A stretch of 58,267 bases of DNA, from positions 1 to 58,267 of IMG/VR virus record IMGVR_UViG_3300036853_000250; one strand, given 5' to 3'. The position numbers were made by a program, and so were the translations under genes. The notes under the pieces are model-generated. The model was not told the DNA's origin, searched no databases, and saw nothing but the letters and a program-made list of their open reading frames with translations. Of this stretch, positions 20,008 to 43,747 are shown piece after piece. Source of the stretch: a virus. Each line of letters begins with the position of its first letter. The first letter of the stretch is position 1.

Positions 20008-21960
20008 ATGCCTGTCTCCACGTACACCAGCACGGACCGCCGAGACGAACACTGGTTCCGTCTCAAGGTCGGCGCGCCGGTGCACGACAAGCTGGTCGCC
20101 TACGGCAAGGCGCTCCTCCGGCGTGAGGAGTCGTTCCATTCGAAGAACCTCGCGCGCGAGCGCATCTACCGCGGCGTCGACCTGCTCAACCAGAAGGCCG
20201 CGCTGGCGGTGCTCGAGCGTGGTGGACGGTCGTTCGCGCGGTTGAACTTCACCAAGGCGATCTGCGACACGTTCAGCAGCCGGCTCTCGAAGGATCGGCC
20301 GATGCCGGGCGTCGTCCCCGACGGCGACTGGTACGCGAAGCGCCAGGCCGAGAAGTTCCGCGAGTTCGTCGTCGGGCAGATGCTGGACAGTGAGTTCGAC
20401 GATCTCAGCCGGCGCGCGCTGCACGACGGCACCCGGCTCGGATCGGGGCTCACGCGCATCGACGACCAGGACGACGGCATCTTCGCCGAGCGCATTCCGC
20501 TCAACGATCTGCTGTTCGACCGCCGCGAGTGCAAGTACGGCAAGCCACGCCAGGCGATCCGCATCCAGCGCATTGCCCGCGATCACCTCGCCGAGCTGTT
20601 CCCGAATTCCAAGGACGCCATCGAGGCCGCGCCGCCGTCGCTGCGCCGCAAGGACGACACCGACGTCGACAGCGACAGCCGCGGACTCGGCGACCTCGAC
20701 GACTACGTAGACACGTGGGAGGCGTGGCACCCGCCGACGCTGCGCGATTCCGATGACGGCCGTCACGTGTTGTGTATCGACGGCACCGCCGACGCGTGCA
20801 CGCTGGTCGCCGAGCAGTGGCACGAGCCGCGGTTCCCGTGGTCGATGTTCCAGCTGACCGACCCTGACTGGGGCATCTACGCCGAGGGCTTCGTCGATCA
20901 GCTGGTCGACCTCCAGCACGAGGTCAACAAGATCGTCCGCAACATCCAGTTGAACCTCGCGGCGACGGGCCGCGGCTTCTTCATGGTGAACGCCGCGAAC
21001 GACATCCCCGTCGAGATGCTCACCGGCTTCCAGCCGTTCAAGCTCAAGTACAACGGCTCCACGCCGCCCCAGTGGGTCGCGCCTCAAGCGTACAACCCGG
21101 CGCAGATGTCGGCGCTCGACCGCTTCATCCAGGCGGCCTACGACCTCACCGGCGTGAGCAAGGCGAACGCTGAGTCGCGGTCTGCGCTCGGTGCCGGCGC
21201 CAGCGGCGTCGCGCTCGACACGCAGTACGACATCGACAGCGACCGGTTCCGGATGCCGCAAGCGAACTACGCGCGGTACAGGCTCGTCGGCGCGCAGTGT
21301 TACATCGACGCGTCGGCGCGCGTCGCTCGTCGTCGCGCGGAAGGCAAGGGCGCCAAACGCAACTGGGTTGCAACGACGTGGAAGGGCCGCGACGCCATCC
21401 AGCAGCTCGACTACTCGAAGGTCGCGCTCGAGGAGGGTTCGTACCGGCTGCGCATCGAGCCGATCGGCTTCATCCCGGACACCCGCGCCGGCAAGATCGC
21501 CGTCGTCGAGCAGCTGGCCAAGGCCGGCGTCATCCCTCAGTGGCTCGTGCCGATGTTGTTCGACGAGCCGGACTTGCAGGAGATGAATCGAATCCTGCTC
21601 GCGCCGATCAAGAACTGCTTGCGCAAGATGGACGTGATCTCCGACGAGGACGAGCCGTTGCCGCAGCCCGAGCAGTACAACGACCTCGATGTCGAGCTGA
21701 AGATCGCGACGGCCTACTACAACTGGATCCAGTGCGAGAAGGCACCTCCGGCTGTCGAGGAGCGCTATCGCCAGTACGTTGACCTCGTCGTCGACGCGCT
21801 GAAGAAGAAGAACCCGCCGCCGATGCCGATGCCGGCCGCTGGCATGGCCCCGGCTGAGCAGCCACTCCCTGGTGGCGTGCCGCTGATGCCGCAAGGGCCG
21901 GTTCCACCGCCGATGCCGATCGGCGCACCGCCTCAACCTCCGATGCAGATGGCAGCATGA
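20008..21960 (+). CDS. Portal protein (650 aa) with Pro/Met-rich C-terminal tail
   Basis: Size and position: after TerL and before scaffold and capsid. ATG at 20008 inside ORF 19894..21960. Confidence 0.75.
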   Translation: MPVSTYTSTDRRDEHWFRLKVGAPVHDKLVAYGKALLRREESFHSKNLARERIYRGVDLLNQKAALAVLERGGRSFARLNFTKAICDTFSSRLSKDRPMPGVVPDGDWYAKRQAEKFREFVVGQMLDSEFDDLSRRALHDGTRLGSGLTRIDDQDDGIFAERIPLNDLLFDRRECKYGKPRQAIRIQRIARDHLAELFPNSKDAIEAAPPSLRRKDDTDVDSDSRGLGDLDDYVDTWEAWHPPTLRDSDDGRHVLCIDGTADACTLVAEQWHEPRFPWSMFQLTDPDWGIYAEGFVDQLVDLQHEVNKIVRNIQLNLAATGRGFFMVNAANDIPVEMLTGFQPFKLKYNGSTPPQWVAPQAYNPAQMSALDRFIQAAYDLTGVSKANAESRSALGAGASGVALDTQYDIDSDRFRMPQANYARYRLVGAQCYIDASARVARRRAEGKGAKRNWVATTWKGRDAIQQLDYSKVALEEGSYRLRIEPIGFIPDTRAGKIAVVEQLAKAGVIPQWLVPMLFDEPDLQEMNRILLAPIKNCLRKMDVISDEDEPLPQPEQYNDLDVELKIATAYYNWIQCEKAPPAVEERYRQYVDLVVDALKKKNPPPMPMPAAGMAPAEQPLPGGVPLMPQGPVPPPMPIGAPPQPPMQMAA

Positions 21961-30371: not shown

Positions 30372-33300
30372 GTGACCCTGCGTGAGGGGCCGCCGGTCCG
30401 CGTCCAATTCGCCGGGGGTGTCGAGACCAAGTCCGATCCCAAGGCGGTGCCGAGTGTCCGCCTGCTCGCACTCGAGAACGGTGTATTTACGCGCGCGATC
30501 TCGATCAAGAAGCGTAACGGTTACGAGTCTATCGCCGACATCGACGGCGCGATTCGTACCGCGACGCGCGATGACGAATTACTGGCGTTCACCCGCACCC
30601 GCAGCACCTCGTTGCAGTCCGACGGCTCCACCTCGGATGCCGGTGCCGTGTTCTCGGTGGTCGCGACCGATCGGCCGCTGGTCGCCACGGGCACCCAGCA
30701 GACGATGCCGGACCAGGCTTCGCTGGCCGGCGTCACCGTGGCCGCATGGGAGGACAGCCGCGGCGGCGTGTGGTGGAGCGTCACCGACACGACGACGGAG
30801 CGGATCCTACGCGCGCCGACTCAAGCGGACGCCGTCGGCCGCTCACCGCGGTGTGTGCCGTGCGGTCCGAACTTGCACGTCTATTACGCGGTGCCGTCGA
30901 TGCGGCGACTGATGGTGCTGGTCATCAGTCCGGAGGCGCCGGGCGCGGCAGTGACTCCGGCTATCCTGACGGACGATCTGGAGGCGACAAATCCGGTTTA
31001 CGACGCGTGTTCGACGACGCGTACCGGAACCCCGGCGGCCATCGCGTGGGTGGAGTCCGCGACCACGGCGATCCGGTTCGGTTATGTCGATCAGAGCGGA
31101 GTGCTGGGCGGCCCGCTTACCGGCCATCCGTCGATCCTGACCTTTGCGGCTGCGCGTTCAGCGACGACACCTGTCGCTATCGCTTACACGTTCATCGATG
31201 GTGGCATCAACGATCGTCTGACTCTCGCATACGTTCCCGCGTCGCTGGCGGCGACCATCGCGACGTTTTTTGGCGGTGATGCATCGACGGCGATCTTGTT
31301 CATCAACGCCGGATCGGGGTACACGGCCGTGAGCGTGCAGCGTATCGCGCTGGCGACAACCGGTGCGACCAGTTCCACCGTGCTGATCTGGGTCGCGTGG
31401 GAGGAGTCCGCTGTCGCGGCGAGCAACCGATTTGTCGTTGCGCAGCGCTATAGCCCGGCTGCGATCTTCCAGGCCGGAATCACGATCCGCTCAGTCGGTC
31501 TCGCGTCGCGCGCATACGCGATCGATGCCGATGTGTTCGCTGTGTTCGTTCATGACACCACGTACTTCAACACGTACCTGACGTTGCGACTGGCCGATGC
31601 AGTCTGCGTCGGTCGTCATGTCCCCGCCGCCGCGGCCGGTGCGCCGACGCGCCCGCACCTGTCGAACGTGCACGTGTTCGGCAGCGTCGCGCTCTTCGCG
31701 CTGCCGTGGCGCGTGCGGCTGACGACCGAGAACAACGACAAGTTCCGCGAGACGTCGCTGCGGTTGTTCACGATGGACTTCGCCTCCGACGCGAGTCATC
31801 AGTACGCGCAGCTCGGCCGCGGGCTGTATCTCGGTGGGGCGTGCCCGCAGCACTACGACGGGTCGATCTGGAGTGAGCAGGGCTTCCACTTCGGCCCCGA
31901 GCTCGTGGCGACCGTGCCCGCGGCCGGCGGCTCCCTCACCAGCGGCACGACCTACGAGTACCGCTACTGGTACGAGTGGACCGACGCGCAAGGTGAGGTG
32001 CACCGCGGCCCGACGTCGATCGGCACGGTCGTCACGATGGGCGGCGGCGACACGCAGGTCACGCACACGCTGCCGACGCTGCGTGTCACCGGCAAGGCGA
32101 ACGTGCGCATCTGCGTCGCACGCACCGAAGCGGCGAAGACGGGCAAGACGGCGCAGCTATTTCGCGTCACGTCGCTCGATCCTTCGGCGTCAGGTCCCAA
32201 CGGCTACGTGGCCAACGACACGACGGTCGACACGGTGACGTTCGTGGACCGCATGAGCGACGTGACGCTGGCGACGCAAGAGGAGCTGTACACGGACGGC
32301 GGCATCCTCAGCAATGACCCCTCGGCTCTCGGCTCTGTCGTCGCGCGCGGACAGTCGCGGCTGTTCTTCACCGACCCCAGCGACGGCAATGTCATCCGCT
32401 TCAGCCAGCCACTCGACGATGGATTCGGCGTCGAGATCCCACCGGACTTGACGATCCGGACCGATCCGTTCGGCGGTGACGTCACGGCGATCGCGTTCGC
32501 CGACGGGCGTGGCTTCGCCTGGAAGCGCGATGCGATCTTCACGTTCGCCGGTGACGGGCCCCTCCCCAACGGCGACACCGCCACGAGCGGATTCACGACG
32601 CCGCAGCTTCTCCCTGGAGATGCCGGCTGCACCAACCCGTCGTCGATCGTGATCACCCCGGCTGGTTTCATGTACCAGTCGAGCAAGGGCATTCACCTGC
32701 TCGCGCGCGACGGGACCGTGCAGTACGTGGGGGCACCCGTCGAGGCCTACAACGCGCAGCGGGTGGTGCGCGCAACGACGCTGCCTGACCGAACCGCGGT
32801 GCTGTTCTTGACCGACTCGGGGCTGTCGTTGCTCTATGACTACCTCTTTGGCCAGTGGTCGACGTTCTCAAACCACGAGGGCCTCGACGCCGCCGTGGTT
32901 AGCAACACGTACCACTACGTGCGCGCTGATGGTCGCGTGTTCCGCGAGACGCCGGGCATCTACAGCGATGCGGGGACGCGCATCCGGCTACGGCTCGAGA
33001 CGGCGTGGCTCCACATGGTCGGCCACCTCCAGGGCTTTCAGCGCTTCTGGTACCTGCATGTCCTCGGCACGTGGGTGTCAGCGCATCAGTTCGGCATCCA
33101 GTACCAGACCGACTACACGCCGGGCTGGACGGACTCGTACTGGCTCGACGCCACCGGCGAGAGCGACAGCACCGGATGGATCACCGGCGGCAACGCCGCG
33201 CCTATCGGCGTCGAGTCGATCGTCGGCACTGGCTACGGCGACGGCGAGTACGGTGACGGACCGTACGGCGGCACCGCGCCGGGACTGTATCAGTGGCGCC

Positions 33301-33458
33301 TCGGCCTCAACGAGAAGGGCCAGTCGATCCAGCTCCGCTTCGAGGACTTCGAGGCGAATGGGTTTCTCGGCGCGTCGTTCGAACTGACCGAGTTGGTTAT
33401 CACCGGCGGCGTCAAGGCGTCCGCACCGCGGCCATTCCAGGCCTCGAGGAGTACGTGA
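30372..33458 (+). CDS. Tail nozzle / tail tubular protein B-like (T7 gp12-like), 1028 aa
   Basis: N-terminal pattern FAGGVETKSDPKAVP...LENGVFTRAISIKKRNG parallels the gp12 pattern GGISQQPD...N...G..KRP. The C-terminal YQWRLGLNEKGQSIQLRFED segment and the size also fit. Confidence 0.6.
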   Translation: MTLREGPPVRVQFAGGVETKSDPKAVPSVRLLALENGVFTRAISIKKRNGYESIADIDGAIRTATRDDELLAFTRTRSTSLQSDGSTSDAGAVFSVVATDRPLVATGTQQTMPDQASLAGVTVAAWEDSRGGVWWSVTDTTTERILRAPTQADAVGRSPRCVPCGPNLHVYYAVPSMRRLMVLVISPEAPGAAVTPAILTDDLEATNPVYDACSTTRTGTPAAIAWVESATTAIRFGYVDQSGVLGGPLTGHPSILTFAAARSATTPVAIAYTFIDGGINDRLTLAYVPASLAATIATFFGGDASTAILFINAGSGYTAVSVQRIALATTGATSSTVLIWVAWEESAVAASNRFVVAQRYSPAAIFQAGITIRSVGLASRAYAIDADVFAVFVHDTTYFNTYLTLRLADAVCVGRHVPAAAAGAPTRPHLSNVHVFGSVALFALPWRVRLTTENNDKFRETSLRLFTMDFASDASHQYAQLGRGLYLGGACPQHYDGSIWSEQGFHFGPELVATVPAAGGSLTSGTTYEYRYWYEWTDAQGEVHRGPTSIGTVVTMGGGDTQVTHTLPTLRVTGKANVRICVARTEAAKTGKTAQLFRVTSLDPSASGPNGYVANDTTVDTVTFVDRMSDVTLATQEELYTDGGILSNDPSALGSVVARGQSRLFFTDPSDGNVIRFSQPLDDGFGVEIPPDLTIRTDPFGGDVTAIAFADGRGFAWKRDAIFTFAGDGPLPNGDTATSGFTTPQLLPGDAGCTNPSSIVITPAGFMYQSSKGIHLLARDGTVQYVGAPVEAYNAQRVVRATTLPDRTAVLFLTDSGLSLLYDYLFGQWSTFSNHEGLDAAVVSNTYHYVRADGRVFRETPGIYSDAGTRIRLRLETAWLHMVGHLQGFQRFWYLHVLGTWVSAHQFGIQYQTDYTPGWTDSYWLDATGESDSTGWITGGNAAPIGVESIVGTGYGDGEYGDGPYGGTAPGLYQWRLGLNEKGQSIQLRFEDFEANGFLGASFELTELVITGGVKASAPRPFQASRST

Positions 33459-33459
33459 C

Positions 33460-34530
33460 ATGGCTGATGTGAAATCAAGCTGGAATCTCGGCGACTGGCT
33501 GGGCAATGTGCACAACTGGTTTGTCGGCGGTGATGCGTCCTCCGCGCTCCCCAAGGGACCACAGCAGTACAACGCCGTCACCGGTCAGCTCGGTCAGATC
33601 GCGGCCGGCGCCCCCAATCGCCAGGCACCACAGACGCAGGCGTATCAACTCGACCCTGCCGCGCAGCTCGCGGGCGGCCAGATGGACCAGTCGCGTGGCG
33701 GTGCAATGGGCGTCGCGAACAATCTCGGGGCCATCGCATCGGGTCAGCAGGCCGGCGCCGGCGAGCTCGCGGTCAACCGTCAGGTGAGTCAGGCGACTGC
33801 CGCGCAGGCCGCGGCGGCGCACATGGCTCGGGGCGCCAACGCCGCCCTGGCGTATCGCTCCGCCGCGCGGAACACCGCCGACATCGGTATGGCCGGTGCA
33901 GGGCAGGCGGCGCAGGCGCAGATGGCCGATCAGCAAGCAGCGCTTGGCCAGCAGGGACAACTCTACGGCGCGATGTACGGGCAGGACGCCAACGTCGCCG
34001 CGCAGAATGCGCAGCTGCAGCAACAAGCGATGTTGCAACAGGGGACGTTCGGCCAGCAGGCCGCGCTCGCGAATCAGCAAGCGCAGCTTGCGCAGACCTC
34101 GCTCAATGACCAGGCGCGTATCCAAGCGCTCGGGCAGCAATTGGGGTGGGACCAAGCGACGATCGACGCGCAGCTGAAGGGCGCCGAAGTCAAGTCGGCG
34201 GACAAGGGCATCCTGGCCGGAATCTTCAAGGGCATCTCCGACGAGCGGCTCAAGACGGACATCGCCGACGGCGGCAAGGACGCCGACGAACTGATGTCCT
34301 CGCTCGGCGGCGCGAAGAAGTACCGCTATCGCGACGAGGAGCGCTGGGGCCGCGGCATGCGGCTCGGCTTCATGGCGCAGGACCTCGAGAAATCCAAAAT
34401 GGGTCGCGCCGTGATGGTCAAGGTCGACGACAAGCTGGGTTTCGACATCGGTAAGGCGGCATCGGCGGCGCTCGCCAGTGTGGCTCGACTCCATGAGCGG
34501 CTCTCTGCGGTGGAGGGCAAGTCGAAGTAA
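33460..34530 (+). CDS. Gln/Ala-rich coiled-coil fibre/needle-like protein with C-terminal S74 intramolecular-chaperone domain
   Basis: GISDERLKTDI ... YRYRDEE ... LGFMAQDLEK ... RLHERLSAVE matches the endosialidase-chaperone (Peptidase_S74) pattern. Confidence 0.7.
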   Translation: MADVKSSWNLGDWLGNVHNWFVGGDASSALPKGPQQYNAVTGQLGQIAAGAPNRQAPQTQAYQLDPAAQLAGGQMDQSRGGAMGVANNLGAIASGQQAGAGELAVNRQVSQATAAQAAAAHMARGANAALAYRSAARNTADIGMAGAGQAAQAQMADQQAALGQQGQLYGAMYGQDANVAAQNAQLQQQAMLQQGTFGQQAALANQQAQLAQTSLNDQARIQALGQQLGWDQATIDAQLKGAEVKSADKGILAGIFKGISDERLKTDIADGGKDADELMSSLGGAKKYRYRDEERWGRGMRLGFMAQDLEKSKMGRAVMVKVDDKLGFDIGKAASAALASVARLHERLSAVEGKSK

Positions 34531-37094
34531 TGGCCCTGTTCGGCACAGACATGGTCAACGTGCAGACGCCCGATGGGCGACGGCTGACGTTGCCCGCGCA
34601 GCTCGCGCAGCAGTTCCCCGGGCTGCAGCCGGTGGCCCCGCTGCAGCAGAGCCTGGGGCCGTCGCTTGGCGGCGCCGCGCCCGGCCCGCCGCCGGCCCCA
34701 GTGCCGGAGGTTGCCGCGCCCGCGCCGCCGCCGGGCCCCGTGACCGCGCCGAGCCAGTCGGCGCCGACCGGCCCCACGCCCGCGCCGCCTCGCGGGCCGG
34801 TGACGTCGCCTGCGCAGGTGCCCGAGCCGGGACCCGTGAACACGCCGAAGCCTCCCACCGATGCCGAGCTGGCCAAGCGCGGCGTGGCCGGTGGACTCGC
34901 CGCGGAGAACGCCGGGTACGACCAGCAGGCCGCGGCAGTCCGCACTGGCGCCATGGTAGACGCCGATGCTGCGACGCAGATCGGACAAGCGATGGCCGCG
35001 CGCGACGCGCAGGCACAGGCCGAGCTCGAGAAGCGCGCGAAGGTCGCCGAGCAACAGCAGGCGCAGCTTGACAGGGCGATGCAAGAGCGCCAGATGGCGG
35101 CGAAGGCGCTCGCTGACAAGAAGATCGACCGGTCCGCGGACCATCCTGTTCTGTCGATGATCAGCATCGTTCTCGGTGCGATCGGAACCGCCATGGTCGA
35201 CCGCGACGCAGCGATCACGGCCGCGATCGGCGGTCGGGCGGCACCGCAGTCGACCGGCGAGAACCCGGCCCTCAGGGCGTTCTACGCGTCCATCGACCGC
35301 AAGGTCGCCGCGCAGATGGCCGACATCGAGAAGGGCCGCGGCGACCTCGCCGAGACCGACAAGACGATCGCCATGATGCGCGCGAACGGTGCCGACCGTT
35401 TACAGACGATGGACGTGCTCCGCGATGCGGCGCTGCAACAGGCCCAGCGCGGCATCGAAACGCTCAAGACAAAGCTCGGCGCGCCACGTGCGCAGGCGAA
35501 CGCGGACATGTTGCTCGCTGACATCCAGCAGAAGCGAGCTGCGTCGGAAAACCAGGCCGCGTCGACAGCGTATCAGCGCATCCAGGCCGAGCAGGCTCGC
35601 AAGGACCAGCTGCAGATGCATGCGCAGAGCGTGGGCGTGCAGCTCCGCGGGCAGAACCTCGAGCAGGGCCGCTGGCAACAGGACTTCGCTGAGAAGAAGC
35701 GGCAGTTTGACATCAAGGAAGCGAACGATCTTGAGGCGGTCAGGCTCGCGCACCCCGGCAAGACGGCCGCCGCGGCTGCAGCTGCGCTCAAAGACAACGA
35801 GGAGCGCGGCATCGGAGACCCGGCCACCGGAAGCTATCTACTTCAGCCCGAGGGCGCGAAGGTCGCGAAGGAAGCCGAGGGCCATCAGGCCACCGCCGAG
35901 CAGTTCCGCGCCGCCGCTGACAGGGAGCAGGATCCAGGTAGGCGTTCGGCACTCGCGGCCCGAGCTGATGCCGAGGCGCAAAAGGCGGCGGAGCTGCGCA
36001 TCGAGGCATCAACCACCGGCACATGGCGCGTTGGCAAGGACGAGCGCAAGGAGGTTTCCTCGCTCGCCTCGACGGCGCAGACCATCGCGAGCACGGCCGA
36101 CGAGATCAAGCTCCTGCGCCAGAAGTACGGCAACGAGTTCACCTCGTCGGCAGCCAAGGCCGAGATGCAGGAAAAGAGCACAGCCCTGCTCATGTATCTG
36201 AAGAACGCGTGGAAACTCGGCGTGCTCAGTGGCAGCGATGCCGAGTACATCGAATCGGCGACTGGCGGCGATCCGTCGAAGCTGACCGCGGCGGACGTCT
36301 CGTCGCTGTTCGGTTCGCCCGACAAAGCGGCTCGACTCGACTCGCTCGTCAGTGGCGTCGAGCAGATGACGCGAAACGAGCTACGCGGCAAAGGCTTCCG
36401 CGGCGAGTTCAAGATCCGTCGCGACGAAGCGGCCAATCTGACCCCCGAAGGCCAGGCCGCCGCCGACGCGCTCGCGCAGCCGACCCCCGGCGAAGAGATC
36501 CAGGGCGCCGGCCGCACCGGCAAGGGTGCGCTCGATACCGTAGGCACGGCGGCGGACAGCTACCTCAACCCGCAGAACACGTGGGCGGCGTTGTCCGGCA
36601 ACCCGTCGGATCCGAAGCGCCGCCGCGAGATCAACGCCGAGCAGAGGGCCACCGGTCGCGGCGACGTCTTCGACATCCCCGGCCTCAATGACACGCAAGC
36701 CAAGGCCGTCGAGGCGAACATCCTCGCGTACAAACAGAACGTCGGCGCGACCGATGAGGCGTCGCGCACGCGCGCGAAGAAAGCGGCTGACACGCTGATC
36801 GGTCTTGCGTCCTCGGATCGGCAGTCGCTGTCCGGCCCCGTGCTCGACGCGCTCGGCGAACATGCACCGGAGCTGCAGAAGCAGGCGTTCGCCCGGCTAC
36901 CCAAGCCACTCGCCACGGCGCGCTCCGGTCGAGAGCAGACGGTTCTCGAGAACACGTCGGTCGGCATCCTTAAGCAGAACGCGCTCGGCGGCGACGAGGC
37001 GTCTAAGGCTGAACTGGGGCGGCGCGCAATCAGTGGCGACAAGGATGCTGTCCGAGCTGTCGCGGATCTGATCAACGCCAGGAAGGTGCGCTGA
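34530..37094 (+). CDS. Internal virion/ejection protein candidate (854 aa) with Pro-rich N-region and one hydrophobic segment
   Basis: Position after the nozzle. Has PPAPVPEVAAPAPPPGPVTAP and VLSMISIVLGAIGTAMV; the rest is long and helical. Confidence 0.55.
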   Translation: MALFGTDMVNVQTPDGRRLTLPAQLAQQFPGLQPVAPLQQSLGPSLGGAAPGPPPAPVPEVAAPAPPPGPVTAPSQSAPTGPTPAPPRGPVTSPAQVPEPGPVNTPKPPTDAELAKRGVAGGLAAENAGYDQQAAAVRTGAMVDADAATQIGQAMAARDAQAQAELEKRAKVAEQQQAQLDRAMQERQMAAKALADKKIDRSADHPVLSMISIVLGAIGTAMVDRDAAITAAIGGRAAPQSTGENPALRAFYASIDRKVAAQMADIEKGRGDLAETDKTIAMMRANGADRLQTMDVLRDAALQQAQRGIETLKTKLGAPRAQANADMLLADIQQKRAASENQAASTAYQRIQAEQARKDQLQMHAQSVGVQLRGQNLEQGRWQQDFAEKKRQFDIKEANDLEAVRLAHPGKTAAAAAAALKDNEERGIGDPATGSYLLQPEGAKVAKEAEGHQATAEQFRAAADREQDPGRRSALAARADAEAQKAAELRIEASTTGTWRVGKDERKEVSSLASTAQTIASTADEIKLLRQKYGNEFTSSAAKAEMQEKSTALLMYLKNAWKLGVLSGSDAEYIESATGGDPSKLTAADVSSLFGSPDKAARLDSLVSGVEQMTRNELRGKGFRGEFKIRRDEAANLTPEGQAAADALAQPTPGEEIQGAGRTGKGALDTVGTAADSYLNPQNTWAALSGNPSDPKRRREINAEQRATGRGDVFDIPGLNDTQAKAVEANILAYKQNVGATDEASRTRAKKAADTLIGLASSDRQSLSGPVLDALGEHAPELQKQAFARLPKPLATARSGREQTVLENTSVGILKQNALGGDEASKAELGRRAISGDKDAVRAVADLINARKVR

Positions 37095-40000
37095 TGCCGG
37101 TCCTGATGCGCAACAAGGACGGCCAGGCCATCGAGGTCGCCGACGAGGACGTCAAGTTCTACGCCGATCGCGGCTACGAGCCCGAGACCACATTCGGCGC
37201 CGTGACGCGCGCCGCGACACCGGACGACGGCGGTGCGCTCGGTACCGCGAACGCGGGCGCACGCGGCTTCTGGTCGGGGCTGACACTCGGCGCGTCGGAC
37301 GTCGTCTCGTCGGCGCTGTCGACCGACCTCGAGCGCGAACAACTGCGAGCAGAGCGGACCGCGCACCCGATCGCCGCCGGTGTCGGCGAGATCGCCGGTC
37401 TTGTCGCCCCGGCGCTCGTCAGCGGCGGTGCGTCACTGCCCGAGTCCACGGCCAGCCTCGGAGCGCGGGCGCTCGAAGCAACCCCCGCCGGCTACCTCAG
37501 TCGCTTCGCGGCCGGTGGCGCCGAAGCCGGGCGCGCGATTGGCGGGCTCGAGGGCGCCGCCAAGGTCGCGGCGTACTCGGGCATCGAGGGCGCCGGTCAG
37601 GCCGCCGGCTCGTACATCTCCGACGTCGCGCTCGGCGACCGCGAACTGACCGCGGAGGGGCTCGCGGGCGCGCTCGGCCACGGCTTCGAGTTCGGCGCCG
37701 CCGCGGGCGCGGTGACGCATGGCATCGAGCGCGGCACGATCGCGGCGCGCCGGTTGTTCGCCCGGACTGCCGAGGGCGGCACGGGCGCGGCGCTGACCGC
37801 CGAGCAGGAGCTGGCGAGGTCGACGCAGGCCACGCTCGAGGCGCAGGAAGCGGCGGCGGAGGCGGCGCGCGCGCAGTTATCGACGGCGCAGCAGGCGCGC
37901 GAGGCGGCGGAGCTGGCGACCCAGAAGGCGCGGGCCGATCTGCTCGAGGTCAGGAACAGCCTGCAGGAGACCGCGGATACCGTGCAGCGCGGGATCCCGG
38001 AGCACGATGCGCTCGAGGCGCATCTACGCGAGATCCGCGCCCCGGCTATTACGCAAACGGTTCCAACTGACGAGTTGCTTGCGCATGGTGTCTTCAACGA
38101 TACGGCGTCCAAGTGGTCGTCGGTGTCGACGGAGCTGAATGACAAGACCTTGCCGACGGTGCTGGCGATCTCACCGAGCGGCAAGGTCGTCGTGCGGGCG
38201 AACCCACAGGCGCTCAAGGCAGCGGCCGAGCACGGCCAGCCTGCACGCGTGCACTGGACCGTGATGTCCGGCGAGCCGCACCCGCTCGCGGAGGCCATCT
38301 CGACGTCGGGACTCGAGGCCGAGCGCAAGGCGACGCAGTTGCTCGAAGAGACCAAGGCGAAGATCGCCGCGGGGCAGATACCCGGCGAGGTCGGTCCGTT
38401 CACGCCTGAGGGCCTCGACCTCGCCGCAAAGCGCGAGATCGCTCGGCAGGCACGCAAGGAGCCTGACCTCGTCGAGGCCCTCAAGGAATATGACGCGGCC
38501 AAGGCCGAGATGGAGGCGGTCAAGCGCCAAGTCGAAGCCGCTCCGCGTGCGCCAAGGGCTGCAAGGGTGCAGGTTGAGCCGCCAAAGACTGCAGAGATAC
38601 CCAGCTACACGACGCTGCGGAAAGCAAAGGTGGACTACATCGAGTCCACGGTTCCAGCTCGCGACATCGCCGAGCGGGGTTACTACGAGCCGCCAGGCGG
38701 GCATCTCGACGCCACACGCACATCGAACGCTCGCAAGGCGATTGCCGAGGGTCAGCGTGAGCCGATCAGCCTCGTCGTATCCGAGAGTGGCAAGATCCAG
38801 GTCGAAGGCGGCCGACATCGCCTGCAGGCCGCCATCGAGGCCGACGCGCCAATCAAGGTGAAGTGGAGCTATGGCTACGAGCCCTCCAAGGAAATGGTGG
38901 CCCGTGGCGCGGCTGCGAAGTCCGGTTCGCTCGAGGTCAAGCGTGTTGGTCGGCCCAGCGAGGGGAAATTTGAAGTACGCAATCCAGACGGGACTGTGAC
39001 TCAGCTCGATCGGAACAGTGCGCGAGAGCTGGCAGAGAGTCAGATGCCGCCGGGATTCACGATCGGGCCACGGATGGAAACGCACCGTGACTTCTCGATC
39101 TTGAGAGGGGTCCCAAAGACTGCCGACGAGATCGTCGAGAATAGCACCTACGTCGTAAAGCCCAGCGAACTGGCACATCGTGGCGTCATCGGCAACGAGA
39201 TACACCCAGAGCATTTATCGAGCATGATCAAGGCTCGAGCTGGAGAGGTAAGGCTCGAGCCGATTGATATTCGCGTCACCCAAGACGGCAGGATGTACGT
39301 TGAGGACGGCAACCACAGACTGCAGGTCGCTGCGCGCACGGATGCTCCGGTAGCGGTAAATTTTAGAGCCGCAGGGGACGGCTACAAGCCACAGCAGAGC
39401 AGTCGAGACATTACCGGTCGACTGCTCGCAGATTTGCCCGCCGGCAGGGGGCGCCGCGCCGCACTGGACCCGCTCGCCGGCTTCGCGCAGGACGTCCACG
39501 ACGCGATCGCGCGGATCGGCGATGGCCCGGCGCAGCGGTACGGCCGCGAAGGCGTTTTCATCTCGGCGATCCACGACGAGATGAGGCAGGCCGGCTACCG
39601 CGGCTCGTTGGCTGACTTCAAGCGCGAGCTGATCAAGGCGAACCGCGAGCAGCTGTTGAACCTGAACCGCGCCGATCTTGTGGATGCGATGCCGGGTCAC
39701 GCGGTCGAGGCCAGCGAGATCGCCGACATGGGCTCCACGTTCCATTTCGTCGAGGACCAGGGCAGGGGGCGCCGCGCCGCAGCGGCTGCGCCACAGCAAT
39801 CCCCGCTCGAGCGCCAGCTCGCGGCGATGAAGACGCAGCTCGATTCCGGCGCCGACATTGGCACGCTGAGCCGCACGCGTACCGCATCGCCGCGGTCGCC
39901 GGAGCAGCTCGAGACCGCCTATGAGGAAGCGATTCAGCGCGCTGACGCGGCCAAGGATGTCGGCGAGAAGCAGATGCATCTTCGCGAGGCCGCGGCACTC

Positions 40001-41362
40001 GAGGAGCAACTCAAGCAGACGCCGCGCCGGTCCGTCGTCGAGGACATCGGCGACATGGCCCCGGTGATGACCCGCTACGAACGTGCCGCGGCGCGCGTCA
40101 CCGAGCTTGCTGGCGGCGCTGCGCCGGAGGCCGCGCGCGCCCATGCCGTCGCGTTCCGCGAGGCCGAGGCCGAGGCCGAGCGCAAAATGATGGATCGGAC
40201 GGCGAGAGCGATCGACGACGCGCAAAACCCGTTGATCAGCCCCGAGGGAAAGCTCGCCAAAGCCCGCGCCGGCAAGGCGGCGGCCGACATCGAGCTCGCC
40301 AAGGCTCGCGTCGCCGAGACCGAAGCATCGCTTGGCGCGCGGGCCGCAGCGGACACCGCCAAGTTTGCACGCGAGGCGTTCGAGGCGGCGCAACCGAAAC
40401 CGCCCGAGCCGGGACTGTTCGGTCAGCTGGCCGGCATGCCGGAGGCCCACGCCATTCCGGTAATCGGCCCGATGCTCAACCGCTACGCGCAGGGCAAGAT
40501 CATGGTCGAGTCGGCCAAGCGCTTCGTTGGCCGCGTGCCGGCGACCGCGACTGGCAAGGCTGCGGCGCTCGCTGCGCGAGTGCGCGACAAGATCGCCAGC
40601 GCCGTCGATCGGTCGCTCGGCCTGATCGAGCGGGCCGCACCCGACGCGCGCCGGCCCGCGGTTGCCGTCCTGGGCGTGCTCGAGCGGCGCGCGTTCGACG
40701 ATGGCGAGCCCGGCGCGCCCAAGGGCGCGAGCGCCACCAAGCTCGCGGCGGTCCGGATCCGCGAGGTCGCCGCCGCAGCCACGAATCCTGATCGGGTGAT
40801 CGCGCAGGTCCGCGGCGAGATGCGCGACGTCACCGATCCGGACCTGATCGCCGCGGCCGAGAAGCACCGCGTGGCGATGTATCAGCACCTCAACGACAAT
40901 GCCCCCAAGGGGCCGCCACCGAACCCGTACACGAAGCGCGAGTGGGAGCCATCGCCCGCGGAGGCGCTGCGGTTCGCGCGCCGGCTCGAGGTCGCCAACG
41001 ACCCCGTGGCTGCGTTCGAGGCGCTGCATCAGCAGTGCCTGACCACGGAGGCGGCCGAAACGCTGCGCGCGGTCTGGCCGAAACTGTTTGGCGAGGCGCA
41101 ACAGCGGCTGGTCTCGAGGGCGCAGGACATCAAGAAACCCGTCGCCTACGACCAGTTGCTCCGCAACTCGCTCCTGTTCGACGTGCCGCTGCACCCGTCA
41201 CTCGAGCCGGACAACGCGGTGGTGCTGCGCTCGGCGTTCGCGCCGATGCCACCGACGCCCGGCACGGGTGCTCCTCAGCCGCCGGTCCCGTCGATCTCCG
41301 GCGGCACCAACCTGACCGCTCTCTACCAGCCGGGCCCAGCCCCGCGCGCATCGATGAGGTGA
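37094..41362 (+). CDS. Giant internal virion/ejection protein (1422 aa) carrying three tandem ParB/sulfiredoxin-like modules
   Basis: Occupies the slot of the T7 gp16-class protein. Carries the motifs KIQVEGGRHRLQAAIEADAPIKV and RMYVEDGNHRLQVAARTDAPVAV. Confidence 0.7.
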   Translation: MPVLMRNKDGQAIEVADEDVKFYADRGYEPETTFGAVTRAATPDDGGALGTANAGARGFWSGLTLGASDVVSSALSTDLEREQLRAERTAHPIAAGVGEIAGLVAPALVSGGASLPESTASLGARALEATPAGYLSRFAAGGAEAGRAIGGLEGAAKVAAYSGIEGAGQAAGSYISDVALGDRELTAEGLAGALGHGFEFGAAAGAVTHGIERGTIAARRLFARTAEGGTGAALTAEQELARSTQATLEAQEAAAEAARAQLSTAQQAREAAELATQKARADLLEVRNSLQETADTVQRGIPEHDALEAHLREIRAPAITQTVPTDELLAHGVFNDTASKWSSVSTELNDKTLPTVLAISPSGKVVVRANPQALKAAAEHGQPARVHWTVMSGEPHPLAEAISTSGLEAERKATQLLEETKAKIAAGQIPGEVGPFTPEGLDLAAKREIARQARKEPDLVEALKEYDAAKAEMEAVKRQVEAAPRAPRAARVQVEPPKTAEIPSYTTLRKAKVDYIESTVPARDIAERGYYEPPGGHLDATRTSNARKAIAEGQREPISLVVSESGKIQVEGGRHRLQAAIEADAPIKVKWSYGYEPSKEMVARGAAAKSGSLEVKRVGRPSEGKFEVRNPDGTVTQLDRNSARELAESQMPPGFTIGPRMETHRDFSILRGVPKTADEIVENSTYVVKPSELAHRGVIGNEIHPEHLSSMIKARAGEVRLEPIDIRVTQDGRMYVEDGNHRLQVAARTDAPVAVNFRAAGDGYKPQQSSRDITGRLLADLPAGRGRRAALDPLAGFAQDVHDAIARIGDGPAQRYGREGVFISAIHDEMRQAGYRGSLADFKRELIKANREQLLNLNRADLVDAMPGHAVEASEIADMGSTFHFVEDQGRGRRAAAAAPQQSPLERQLAAMKTQLDSGADIGTLSRTRTASPRSPEQLETAYEEAIQRADAAKDVGEKQMHLREAAALEEQLKQTPRRSVVEDIGDMAPVMTRYERAAARVTELAGGAAPEAARAHAVAFREAEAEAERKMMDRTARAIDDAQNPLISPEGKLAKARAGKAAADIELAKARVAETEASLGARAAADTAKFAREAFEAAQPKPPEPGLFGQLAGMPEAHAIPVIGPMLNRYAQGKIMVESAKRFVGRVPATATGKAAALAARVRDKIASAVDRSLGLIERAAPDARRPAVAVLGVLERRAFDDGEPGAPKGASATKLAAVRIREVAAAATNPDRVIAQVRGEMRDVTDPDLIAAAEKHRVAMYQHLNDNAPKGPPPNPYTKREWEPSPAEALRFARRLEVANDPVAAFEALHQQCLTTEAAETLRAVWPKLFGEAQQRLVSRAQDIKKPVAYDQLLRNSLLFDVPLHPSLEPDNAVVLRSAFAPMPPTPGTGAPQPPVPSISGGTNLTALYQPGPAPRASMR
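39443..39463. repeat. 21-bp direct repeat GGCAGGGGGCGCCGCGCCGCA, copy 1 (inside 37094..41362)
   Basis: Perfect match to 39761..39781; offset 318 nt, which is 106 codons. Confidence 0.95.
39761..39781. repeat. 21-bp direct repeat, copy 2
   Basis: Perfect match to 39443..39463. Confidence 0.95.
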
Positions 41363-41366
41363 TCCC

Positions 41367-41867
41367 ATGTCCAGAATGCCACGCGCCGGTGGGCGCTACG
41401 TCGCTCCAATCAAGCAGTCCGACGGCACCTCGCCAGTCGAGGAAGGTCACGGCAAATACACGCTCGCAGCCAATACGACGTACGTCTATCCGCTCGGCGG
41501 CGCAGATGCGCCGTTTCAGAGCGTACAGCTCACGGGGTACACGTCGGCAGCCGTCATTACGACCGCGACTATCAGGGACTGCAATCACCACGGCGGCATG
41601 AACTCGGGCCTACCGGCCACCCAGGGCGACGTCCCCGATACCAGCACCACCGTAGGCGAGTGGATCGCTGAGGATCCGACCACGGCGTTCGTCGGCGTCG
41701 ACGGCACTGGCTGGTCTGTGACAAACGGGGTTGTGGCGGCGGCCGGTAGCGGCGTCGGTGGCGCCCTGTTCCACGTCGCAGAGACGGGCGCGGCCCGGAC
41801 GCTGCTCGAGGTCGCGGTTGGAGCTACCGGCGGCGTGTTTCGGGCCTCGGCTCACGGCAAGGACTGA
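41367..41867 (+). CDS. virion-module protein (166 aa)
   Basis: ORF track. Confidence 0.5.
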   Translation: MSRMPRAGGRYVAPIKQSDGTSPVEEGHGKYTLAANTTYVYPLGGADAPFQSVQLTGYTSAAVITTATIRDCNHHGGMNSGLPATQGDVPDTSTTVGEWIAEDPTTAFVGVDGTGWSVTNGVVAAAGSGVGGALFHVAETGAARTLLEVAVGATGGVFRASAHGKD

Positions 41868-43747
41868 TGGCCCTCGGACTACGCAGCATAACGATCGGCC
41901 CACACATCGGCCTGGGCATCGGCGGAGCCGCGAACGGCATCAGCCTGCTCGGCCTCGAACCGATCGGCTTCGGTGGGCAGAGCAACGTCCAGGGCTCGGC
42001 GTCGCCGATCACCCCGACCGGCGTCACGATGGCGCGCGCGATCACGCTCGCGACCGGACTCGATCAGCCGTTCACCGGCTGCTACGAGATGCGCAAGTAC
42101 GGGTCGACGCCTCCGGACCCGCCGACGTGGCTGACCACCGGCGGCATCGTCCAGGGGCCGGTTCCACTCGCGCCGCGGCCCATCAATGCGGAGGAGGCGC
42201 TCGGAGGCTCGTTCGGGCCGTCGCTGTCACTCGGGCGCTACCTGCACCACTCGTTGCCCGGCTGGGTCGTCGGCGAGCTCGCGCTCGGCGGCACGACGCT
42301 GGCCACGAACTGGAAGGCGCCGCCGGGGAACACGTACCCGACGGCGAATCCGAAGCTCGTCGACCAGTGGATCGCCTTCTTGCAGTCGCTGCAGGTCGCG
42401 ACTGGCAAGACGTTGCGCGCCATCGTCTGGTCGCACGGCACGTCGGACGCGCTGAACACGACGAACGCCAACAACTACGCAGCGAACCTGGCGGCGTTCT
42501 ACACCTACGTCTCCGCGTTCTTCCCGGGCGTGCCGTGGATCATCGAGCAAATCAGCTCGTTGTCGGCCGGCGGCGCCGACCTGACCACGGTCCGCAATGC
42601 ACAGGCTGCGTTCGTCGCCGCGAATCCGGGCGTGACGTTCCTCGTCGACTCCGAGTCATTGCCGCTGCCCGGCAATCAGGCCGGCAACCTGACCCACTAC
42701 AACGCGGACGGCTACATCGTGATGGGCCGGCGCTACGCCGCGAAGGTGCTCGCGGCGTGCTCGATCCCCGAGGTGCCGCAAGCGGAGTTCCGCTACTTCG
42801 GCTCGGGAACATCGGTGCAGCTCACCGACATGTCGATCAACGCCAACTCCGCGGTGAACGCGTGGAGTTGGAGCGTGCAGGGTATCGGCGTCATCTCGAC
42901 GAGCCAGAACCCGGTCTGGGTGGCGCCGGGAACCGGGACGTTCAGCGTCTCGCTCACCGCGACGTCGGCGAACGGCAAGAGTGACACCATCACTCACAGC
43001 GTCATCGTCGCAACCAACGCCTGGACCGTCGACGCGACTGCGAACATCGCGTGTCCGTCGACGCTGGCTGAGGAGAACGCGTTCCTGGCGGCGGCCGGCA
43101 TAACCAGCGGCCCGTGCTCGCATCTCTGGCTGAATCAGGCGAACTGCCAAGGCTCGCCGTTCCAGGATCCGGACGTCATCGGCGGCGTCCCGCTCGGCGC
43201 CAACGGCGCGTTCACGTCGCAATCGGCGTCGGCGAGCTGGACGCGTGTCGGCAATCTCTGGGCGGACGGCGTGTCCAACCGGCATCTGTCGAGTACGGCG
43301 GCGGGCTTGCCCGACTGCTCGGTGACGCCGACGCTGCTCATCGGCTTCTGGGACATGCCGGCTGCTGCGCCCGCAGCGACTCGCGGCTTCATGTCGATCG
43401 GCGTGACCGGCAACGGAGATCTACGCCTCGGTCTCACCACCGGCAAGTTGCAACTCAACGCCACGGCGAACACGCCGATGGTTTACAACGTCTGCAACAG
43501 CGGACGCCAGTTCGTCGCGATTCAGGACACGCTCACCGAGGTCATCATCTATACGGAGCAAGAGCGCTTCGTGATGCCGCGGCGCACGCCTGCGAGCGGC
43601 AAGTCCGTCGGCTTCGGCGGATTCACGGCGACGAGTCCGGCCGCGCGACTCGTGTACGCCAAGCTCTACCGCGACGCGGCTGCGCTCATCTCCGTCGAAC
43701 TGCTGCGCGCGTATTTCCGAACTGGAGGATGGAATCCGGCATGGTGA
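41867..43747 (+). CDS. Tail-associated SGNH/sialate-O-acetylesterase-like carbohydrate esterase with PKD-like domain (626 aa)
   Basis: Has the GFGGQSNVQG (GQSN) block, a late LTHYNADGY block, then the PKD-like FGSGTSVQLTDMS...GTFSVSLTATSANGKSDTITHSVIV. Confidence 0.7.
   Translation: MALGLRSITIGPHIGLGIGGAANGISLLGLEPIGFGGQSNVQGSASPITPTGVTMARAITLATGLDQPFTGCYEMRKYGSTPPDPPTWLTTGGIVQGPVPLAPRPINAEEALGGSFGPSLSLGRYLHHSLPGWVVGELALGGTTLATNWKAPPGNTYPTANPKLVDQWIAFLQSLQVATGKTLRAIVWSHGTSDALNTTNANNYAANLAAFYTYVSAFFPGVPWIIEQISSLSAGGADLTTVRNAQAAFVAANPGVTFLVDSESLPLPGNQAGNLTHYNADGYIVMGRRYAAKVLAACSIPEVPQAEFRYFGSGTSVQLTDMSINANSAVNAWSWSVQGIGVISTSQNPVWVAPGTGTFSVSLTATSANGKSDTITHSVIVATNAWTVDATANIACPSTLAEENAFLAAAGITSGPCSHLWLNQANCQGSPFQDPDVIGGVPLGANGAFTSQSASASWTRVGNLWADGVSNRHLSSTAAGLPDCSVTPTLLIGFWDMPAAAPAATRGFMSIGVTGNGDLRLGLTTGKLQLNATANTPMVYNVCNSGRQFVAIQDTLTEVIIYTEQERFVMPRRTPASGKSVGFGGFTATSPAARLVYAKLYRDAAALISVELLRAYFRTGGWNPAW

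Follow-up and report, generated by a model that had tools for sequence, protein, structure and literature searches.

Domains of the ParB/sulfiredoxin (Srx) fold have been described as cargo of proteins that are delivered into bacterial cells. Among head-packaged polyvalent proteins, DdrB-like ParB domains were reported, with DdrB of phage P1 as the prototype (Iyer, Burroughs, Anand, de Souza and Aravind, 2017; PMC5512222). This lineage is marked by an Asp or Asn at a strand end, a conserved Arg after it, and an extra helix with a conserved Tyr, and in the same study MuF and ADP-ribosyltransferase (ART) domains were the hubs of the polyvalent-protein network (PMC5512222). MuF is the classic carrier by which polymorphic toxin or polyvalent cargo is packaged in the capsid (PMC3482391; PMC5512222), and a Tox-ParB domain is known from polymorphic toxin systems (Zhang et al., 2012; PMC3482391). 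ToxB, a ParB-fold toxin of CdiA, has ATPase activity and causes collapse of the nucleoid (bioRxiv 10.64898/2026.05.05.722872). Finally, phage proteins are assigned to the T7 gp16-like group by their size and synteny; with its C-terminal part, such a protein extends into the cytoplasm and binds DNA (PMC8954989). Here we describe a gene at 37094..41362 of the IMG/VR virus record IMGVR_UViG_3300036853_000250 (positions 1 to 58,267; this whole stretch of 58,267 nt is called the window below). The gene encodes a protein of 1422 amino acids (aa) with three ParB/Srx-like modules, A, B and C, in its central part.

On balance, we favor the reading that modules of this family are injected effector cargo that binds or hydrolyzes nucleoside triphosphates (NTPs), loaded in an exchangeable slot of a virion-delivered carrier. 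The carrier would consist of the conserved N- and C-terminal parts of a large protein from the structural module of a podovirus-like, uncultured phage, parts that probably serve for head packaging and ejection through the tail. The slot is loaded here with a B-type module, a C-type module with a 70-aa extension, and a probable winged-helix domain (D), and module A, upstream of the slot, is an older, inactivated ParB/Srx module within the core. The cargo would come into the cell together with the DNA and act early on DNA or nucleotide pools, by which the host nucleoid would be shut down or compacted, or a defense would be countered. The G-x-H-R element holds nucleotide phosphates in sulfiredoxin and ParB. 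Since B and C keep this element, binding and hydrolysis of a nucleotide (ATP or CTP) would be the most likely mechanism. Fold, paralogy, insertion, slot variability, motif conservation and the link with MuF are established by the comparisons below, whereas the place of the protein in the virion, its injection, the enzymatic activity and the target are inferred. The features in question are as follows.

37094..41362, + strand: open reading frame (ORF) of the structural-module protein, 1422 aa; scaffold conserved at both ends, centre variable
37094..37963, + strand: conserved N-terminal scaffold (aa 1-290), Gly/Ala-rich and then coiled coil, covered by 66-100 of 107 homologues
37361..37438, + strand: hydrophobic transmembrane-like segment (aa 90-115), the only strong one (Kyte-Doolittle 19-residue mean at most 1.62)
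38048..38263, + strand: module A (aa 319-390), degenerate ParB/Srx-like, motif lost (RANPQAL), in the native core
38603..39799, + strand: inserted cargo cassette (aa 504-902, 399 aa)
38642..38881, + strand: module B (aa 517-596), predicted ParB/Srx fold, B-type, motif GGRHR
38930..39142, + strand: conserved extension of about 70 aa (aa 613-683)
39146..39370, + strand: module C (aa 685-759), ParB/Srx-like, C-type, motif DGNHR
39443..39463, + strand: left copy of a perfect 21-nt direct repeat, encoding GRGRRAA
39521..39763, + strand: mobile domain D (aa 810-890), tentatively winged-helix-like
39761..39781, + strand: right copy of the 21-nt direct repeat, encoding GRGRRAA
39800..41359, + strand: conserved C-terminal scaffold (aa 903-1422), covered by up to 103 of 107 homologues

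The three modules are each about 75 aa long and are paralogous. B and C share 36% identity across 84 aa (pairwise E 4e-12), and A and B share 27% across 85 aa (E 3e-9, obtained with composition-based statistics off and in a tiny search space). Similarity between A and C is weak, and homologues bridge A to B and C. A profile hidden Markov model (HMM) seeded on the three copies recovered A at 7e-20, B at 4e-34 and C at 7e-27, together with 37 more copies in 32 homologues. In register with 186 copies of the family, A reads A-N-P-Q-A-L, B reads G-G-R-H-R-L and C reads D-G-N-H-R-L. The dominant motif classes are DGRHR (68 copies) and DGNHR (61 copies), H-R is intact in 160 of the 186, a sign of selection on the motif, and B has Gly instead of the usual Asp, a variant of 11 copies. 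The G-x-[H/R]-R phosphate-binding element is present in B and C and lost in A; the same module, equally degenerate, is found in the homologues P0001-P0004. An earlier interpretation of this stretch, made from the letters alone and referred to below as the sequence-only reading, had recognized the 1422-aa ORF, its three similarly built central modules and the absence of GxHR from the first, all of which were confirmed; the peptides it quoted lie at aa 353-388, 556-591 and 722-757 (nt 38150-38257, 38759-38866 and 39257-39364). It had also given the second and third modules the signature (D/E)G-x-HR-L, which is right for C and not for B.

The fold of module B is supported by an AlphaFold2 (AF2) model, which was built from an alignment of 29 module copies (AF2 models cover module B and domain D). 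The model has a mean predicted local distance difference test score (pLDDT) of 83.5 and a predicted template modeling score (pTM) of 0.72. In a Foldseek search of the PDB, its top 50 matches all belong to the ParB/Srx superfamily (Foldseek probability 0.72-1.00, and at least 0.97 in the top 35), with template modeling (TM) scores of about 0.5-0.57. The best matches, at only 12-21% identity, are sulfiredoxin (2rii and 3cyi; E 2e-3, probability 1.00, TM about 0.54), and the N-domains of ParB, Noc, KorB and PadC (6sdk, 7nfu, 8qa8, 6ryk) are also among the best; 6sdk is a ParB-CDP (cytidine diphosphate) structure, and the remaining matches include the pNOB8 ParB N-domain, SbnI, a serine kinase and Atu1540. 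Among the predicted viral structures of BFVD, 18 match B at E <= 1e-3, and those with names are called ParB/Sulfiredoxin or ParB-like nuclease. In PHROGs there is a single weak ParB-like match, phrog_1033 on module C (aa 704-749, E 0.0015). Other family members reach Pfam models below the gathering threshold, namely DUF1015 (3e-4), ParBc_2 (5e-3), DndB and ParB_N (PF02195; 5e-4 for a lone module and 3e-6 in a full-length protein), all four of which we take to belong to the Pfam ParB clan; these sub-threshold matches occur among a scatter of unrelated weak ones. The ParB/Srx call of the sequence-only reading is thus upheld for B by the model, the PDB and BFVD comparisons, with the weak PHROG match on C beside them. 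For C the fold may be extended from its 36% identity to B, and for A it would follow only from the weaker similarity of 27%. At the level of sequence, the modules are best regarded as an uncurated family of the ParB/Srx superfamily. G-x-H-R presumably lies at the start of the helix after the central strand, like G-C-H-R of Srx, as judged from motif register and not from residue-level superposition. Unlike Srx the modules have no Cys, and unlike ParB they have no GERRxR box. In hhalign, the module profile gave no signal with human sulfiredoxin, for which an approximate single sequence of low sensitivity was used.

Among PDB sequences, profiles of the modules matched only NHL repeats (TRIM71, TRIM2) and LOV domains. 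These matches are spurious and come from the short string 'G.l.V.D..nHRl'; an NHL-repeat identity was rejected because over 100 aa separate the modules and the model shows an alpha/beta fold, not a propeller blade. The string 'G-x-l-x-V-x-D-x-x-n-H-R-l' matches NHL repeats reproducibly and can mislead automated annotation of the module.

Modules B and C are parts of a precise insertion. P0001, a homologue of 1032 aa with 80% identity, passes directly from '...EPKAAEIP' to 'ESPESPLEQQLAAMK' in a three-way alignment, and the window protein holds 399 extra residues (aa 504-902) exactly at this junction, 'AEIP' / 'SPLE.QLAAMK'. P0002 (74% identical) has an unrelated ART cassette of about 180 aa at the same junction. 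The sequence-only reading had suggested a survey of homologues for presence or absence of the cassette; P0011 and P0014 also lack it, as does P0001, and the content of the slot varies across the 107 homologues. Module A lies outside the insertion, in the native core, and module B with its flanks corresponds to aa 504-612. The extension at aa 613-683 always stands directly upstream of C-type (DGNHR) modules, in all 38 proteins where it was matched, MuF fusions included.

Codon usage agrees with the insertion in part. The mean G/C content at third codon positions (GC3) of the window genes is 0.855, and the target ORF, at 0.82-0.87, is typical of them. By segment, GC3 is 0.87 for aa 1-450, 0.70 for aa 451-503, 0.77 for B, 0.64 for the C unit, 0.87 for the segment with D (aa 776-902) and 0.86 for aa 903-1422. 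The lowest 100-codon GC3 windows of all window genes examined lie at aa 600-790, in the C unit. Module A (GC3 0.79) and aa 391-450 are outside the low-GC3 patch, most codons within the patch still end in G or C, and a smaller dip, to 0.68-0.72, is seen where the junction is empty in P0001. The compositional anomaly is therefore moderate and spans only part of the insertion. It had been proposed from the letters alone that codons shift to A/T endings across about 38030..39420 and that this marks an acquired cassette. The shift is real, milder than proposed and differently placed, with A excluded; the acquired cassette stands as the 399-aa insertion relative to P0001, with the ART cassette of P0002 at the same place, but it leaves out module A and is only partly covered by the codon patch.

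The insertion itself appears to be composite, B/C and D having different histories. A 21-nt direct repeat (GGCAGGGGGCGCCGCGCCGCA) occurs in two perfect in-frame copies, 318 nt apart, that exactly bracket domain D; 300 codon shuffles yielded no exact repeat longer than 16 nt. The encoded GRGRRAA motif is essentially unique to the window protein among 240 homologues. The repeat looks like the scar of a separate and recent in-frame domain insertion, or a site for precise loss of D. Domain D is present in 10 other proteins, and it had no match among PDB sequences or in Pfam. Its AF2 model (pLDDT 77.7) gave weak Foldseek matches to PadR, Fur/Zur, ORC-WH, BlaI and histone H1 (E >= 0.08, TM 0.36-0.40), from which a winged-helix-like fold may be proposed with low confidence. 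As for a donor, a search of the protein database with the cassette alone gave one partial match, of 70% identity and to B only, in a metagenome-assembled genome (MAG) of Kofleriaceae. In IMG/VR, four contigs have B-type modules of 62-66% identity, none in the B-C-D arrangement, and a GTDB scan with the C-terminal domain gave nothing; a close donor of the cassette was found in none of these three collections.

Variability of the slot is seen across the whole family. The database search gave 107 homologues with a conserved N-terminal part of about 290 aa and a conserved C-terminal part of about 450 aa, and their coverage collapses between aa ~300 and ~930 of the window protein. In these 107, the slot holds the module in 32 and a PF03496 ART in 22; other contents are PF01129, NUDIX, a domain with the source label 'GNAT', or nothing, and homologues of 811-1032 aa occur without any cassette. 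P0012 and P0043 have PHROG matches to T4-Alt-like and exoenzyme ARTs. In the family set of 240 proteins, local HMMs detected the N scaffold in 197 and the C scaffold in 201, and more than 200 homologues share the N/C scaffold. The centre of the protein, by this comparison of sequences, behaves as a hot-swappable slot that would take effector cargo. As in polyvalent proteins, several domains are combined: modules and domain D in the window protein, and modules with ART, NUDIX and others, in varied order, in its orthologues.

The module is not restricted to this scaffold. An exhaustive profile search found it in 454 cluster representatives at E <= 1e-3. In a set of 166 proteins with the module, both ends of the scaffold are present in 120, and both are absent from 39. 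Of the scaffold-free proteins, 35 were examined, and in 21 of these 35 the module is the C-terminal part of a Phage_Mu_F fusion; others pair it with a 2H phosphoesterase, an inorganic pyrophosphatase (InPase) or an exotoxin-A-type ART. Of the indirect evidence for the module as cargo that is delivered, the 21 MuF fusions weigh most. This module family is thus C-terminal cargo in a system known for polymorphic toxins (PMC3482391; Jamet et al., 2017, PMC5576092), and cassette-like swapping of effector domains on a constant carrier is common to both. Unlike the MuF systems, the window protein has no MuF domain (Phage_Mu_F was not found in it with Pfam), its cargo is internal, and no immunity gene is evident. 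These likenesses and differences bear on whether the modules could be polymorphic toxins for bacterial competition that are sent into bacteria without immunity, a role proposed for MuF toxins in temperate phages and demonstrated for ToxB of CdiA (PMC3482391; bioRxiv 10.64898/2026.05.05.722872). The MuF fusions and the precedents of Tox-ParB and ToxB speak for this, and a relative of the window with an integrase (the L003 locus, below) would allow a temperate lifestyle. The central rather than C-terminal position of the cargo and the absence of a MuF domain speak against it, as does the absence of a cassette-linked immunity gene: the small ORF just downstream (41367-41867) is kept whatever the cassette is. 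We regard such a toxin role as improbable.

A single module is the rule (149 of 166 proteins). The other 17 have two or three copies, usually with one of each motif class, and three copies occur in only three. A DGRHR-type and a DGNHR-type module stand in one polypeptide, in either order, in at least eight proteins, which are the window ORF and P0046, P0108, P0110, P0111, P0112, P0115 and P0237. This hints at a functional pair. ParB N-domains act as nucleotide-bridged dimers, and ParB, Noc and KorB are CTP clamps. All three are among the Foldseek matches of B. B and C, as a pseudo-dimer, and the winged-helix-like domain after C could instead make an NTP-gated DNA-binding unit that holds or loads onto the leading end of the genome, and would protect the DNA or guide its entry rather than attack the host; DNA binding by the cytoplasmic part of T7 gp16 would be a parallel (PMC8954989). 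However, the excess of B/C-type pairs lacks statistical significance (such pairs occur in about 9 of 12 proteins with two copies), single modules prevail, D is present in only 11 proteins with a weak winged-helix call, and there is neither a GERRxR box nor a canonical helix-turn-helix (HTH). Such a pilot or shield function seems unlikely to us. Its stricter form, in which the three domains are an injected, intramolecular, nucleotide-gated clamp that rides or caps the incoming DNA against host nucleases, is a little more doubtful again. If the clamp exists, the protein family would be the podovirus counterpart of MuF toxins, with an unchanging carrier for ejection and a hot spot of recombination at which anti-host effectors are swapped in frame.

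When our preferred reading, that of injected NTP-dependent cargo, is set beside the DdrB-like ParB domains, the general arrangement is alike: a ParB/Srx-fold domain within a big protein of several domains, whose gene lies among the late virion genes, with predicted cell entry together with DNA, and relatives that combine the module with ART, MuF and other effector domains. The sequences differ. In hhalign, the module profile reached P1 DdrB with a probability of 0.2, against a single-sequence target of limited sensitivity. The DdrB motif is S-G-N-G-R, without His, and the family here has D-G-(R/N)-H-R, D or N preceding G-x-H-R in most copies. The carrier is also unlike that of DdrB, being a different, undescribed N/C scaffold with central cargo and up to three copies of the module per protein. 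With ToxB, likened here by its description, the shared idea is a ParB fold as a delivered effector, working in ToxB through nucleotide hydrolysis and not partition; unlike the phage protein, ToxB is delivered by a type V secretion system and has an immunity protein. The statement of the sequence-only reading that such an array fits no described function was therefore too strong, given DdrB-like domains, Tox-ParB and ToxB, and MuF fusions in 21 of 35 scaffold-free proteins. What is found adds a family and a carrier architecture, both new, to a theme already known, and is not a categorically new device, because phage-delivered or secreted cargo with the ParB/Srx fold had already been described (PMC5512222; PMC3482391; bioRxiv 10.64898/2026.05.05.722872).

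The modules might also act as a partition or DNA-organizing factor of ParB type for the phage genome in the infected cell, in a protein that is not part of the virion. ParB-like proteins are common in phage genomes. Unlike canonical ParB, however, the protein has no canonical HTH or dimerization domain and no ParA/parS context: no HTH is beside B, the weak winged-helix-like domain sits 50 aa after C in place of the adjacent HTH of ParB, and a ParA-like gene was not seen among the window ORFs scanned, a scan that leaves some small ORFs outside. The lack of a GERRxR box, the embedding of the gene in a late structural block with conserved synteny, and the interchange of the slot content with ARTs are further arguments against such a role, to which we give very little credence.

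The carrier shows several likenesses to the T7 gp16 class (PMC8954989), namely large size (1422 aa), position in the structural module with the same gene order in L002 and L003, a hydrophobic segment, and mosaic domains in relatives. Unlike that class, it has no transglycosylase domain. The sequence-only reading had placed it in the gp16 slot. This assignment is tentative and goes by size and gene position, the criterion in common use for such proteins (PMC8954989); the protein and a scaffold profile of 36 cargo-poor homologues showed no similarity to known or solved ejection proteins in PHROG, Pfam or PDB-sequence searches.

Several points weigh against injected NTP-dependent cargo. First, the presence of the protein in the virion and its ejection are predictions from context. 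The scaffold, which contains long coiled coils, is without a family match when the whole protein is searched against Pfam, PHROGs and PDB sequences, and the scaffold profile returned only coiled-coil noise from PDB sequences and Pfam. A tail-associated role is possible since the gene is flanked by genes of tail-fiber type (Peptidase_S74 at 33460-34530 and SASA at 41867-43747). Second, the Foldseek E-values of B are modest (2e-3), the module profiles reached no ParB or Srx among PDB sequences, and the winged-helix call of D is weak. The searches for ParB/Srx similarity proposed by the sequence-only reading were thus positive for the structure of B and negative for Pfam, where ParB models matched neither the whole protein nor the three modules even at E <= 1. 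Third, a non-catalytic role is conceivable because B is without the usual Asp, and A, although inactive, is retained at 55-72% identity to P0001. The modules could then be structural filler, blocks that set the length or packing of an internal or tail protein, with the ParB fold just as a stable scaffold; that homologues of 811-1032 aa work without a cassette would fit. H-R in 160 of 186 copies and the two conserved motif classes are hard to reconcile with filler, the other domains that occupy the slot are true enzymes (such as ART and NUDIX), and the same module is C-terminal cargo of MuF proteins. We consider filler a slim possibility.

If the carrier is ejected, the family would be a natural library of injected effectors, with more than 200 public variants on one scaffold and one slot, including ParB-like modules, ARTs, NUDIX and others. 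The role of each cargo in host range or defense evasion would be directly testable, because the window protein, P0001 and P0002 are near-isogenic and differ mainly in the slot. The modules would also be a second, sequence-distinct ParB/Srx family beside the P1 DdrB cargo, and would extend the recent finding of the ParB fold as a delivered NTPase effector.

With a GC content of 67% and a length of about 58 kb, the window is a phage genome. It encodes a helicase, a D5-type primase, a large terminase, a P22/SU10-like portal, a major capsid protein, a pectate-lyase tailspike, a SASA-esterase fiber, an amidase endolysin, RecT and an exonuclease. The target gene lies in the structural block, after the portal, capsid and tailspike genes and before the tail fiber and lysis genes, and is preceded by large ORFs of 1028 and 854 aa (30372-33458 and 34530-37094). 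Between these two, the 356-aa ORF at 33460-34530 has a Peptidase_S74 intramolecular chaperone domain of the tail fiber or spike type; since its large neighbors are usually read as internal or ejection proteins, the block mixes fiber and putative internal-protein genes. Antisense and overlapping ORFs within the target gene, 38171..39214 (- strand) and 38490..38861 (+ strand), were rejected as genes, as their GC3 is not coding-like.

Gene order around 37094..41362 is kept in the relatives L002 and L003, the latter of which has an SU10-type adaptor. The fiber-like protein downstream (41867-43747) bears a SASA carbohydrate esterase domain, which suggests a receptor-modifying, deacetylating tail fiber, and its counterpart in L003 (14084-15961) adds PKD domains. 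L003, a 74%-identical relative, also carries a phage integrase at 20651-21694, downstream of the lysis region, and the lineage may therefore be temperate. A tblastn search of INPHARED (about 50,000 GenBank phage records) with the target protein and the portal gave zero matches, and the phage appears to belong to an uncultured lineage. The contigs that bear homologues are mostly 54-60 kb long, and those few that have a name come from Kofleriaceae (Myxococcota) MAGs.

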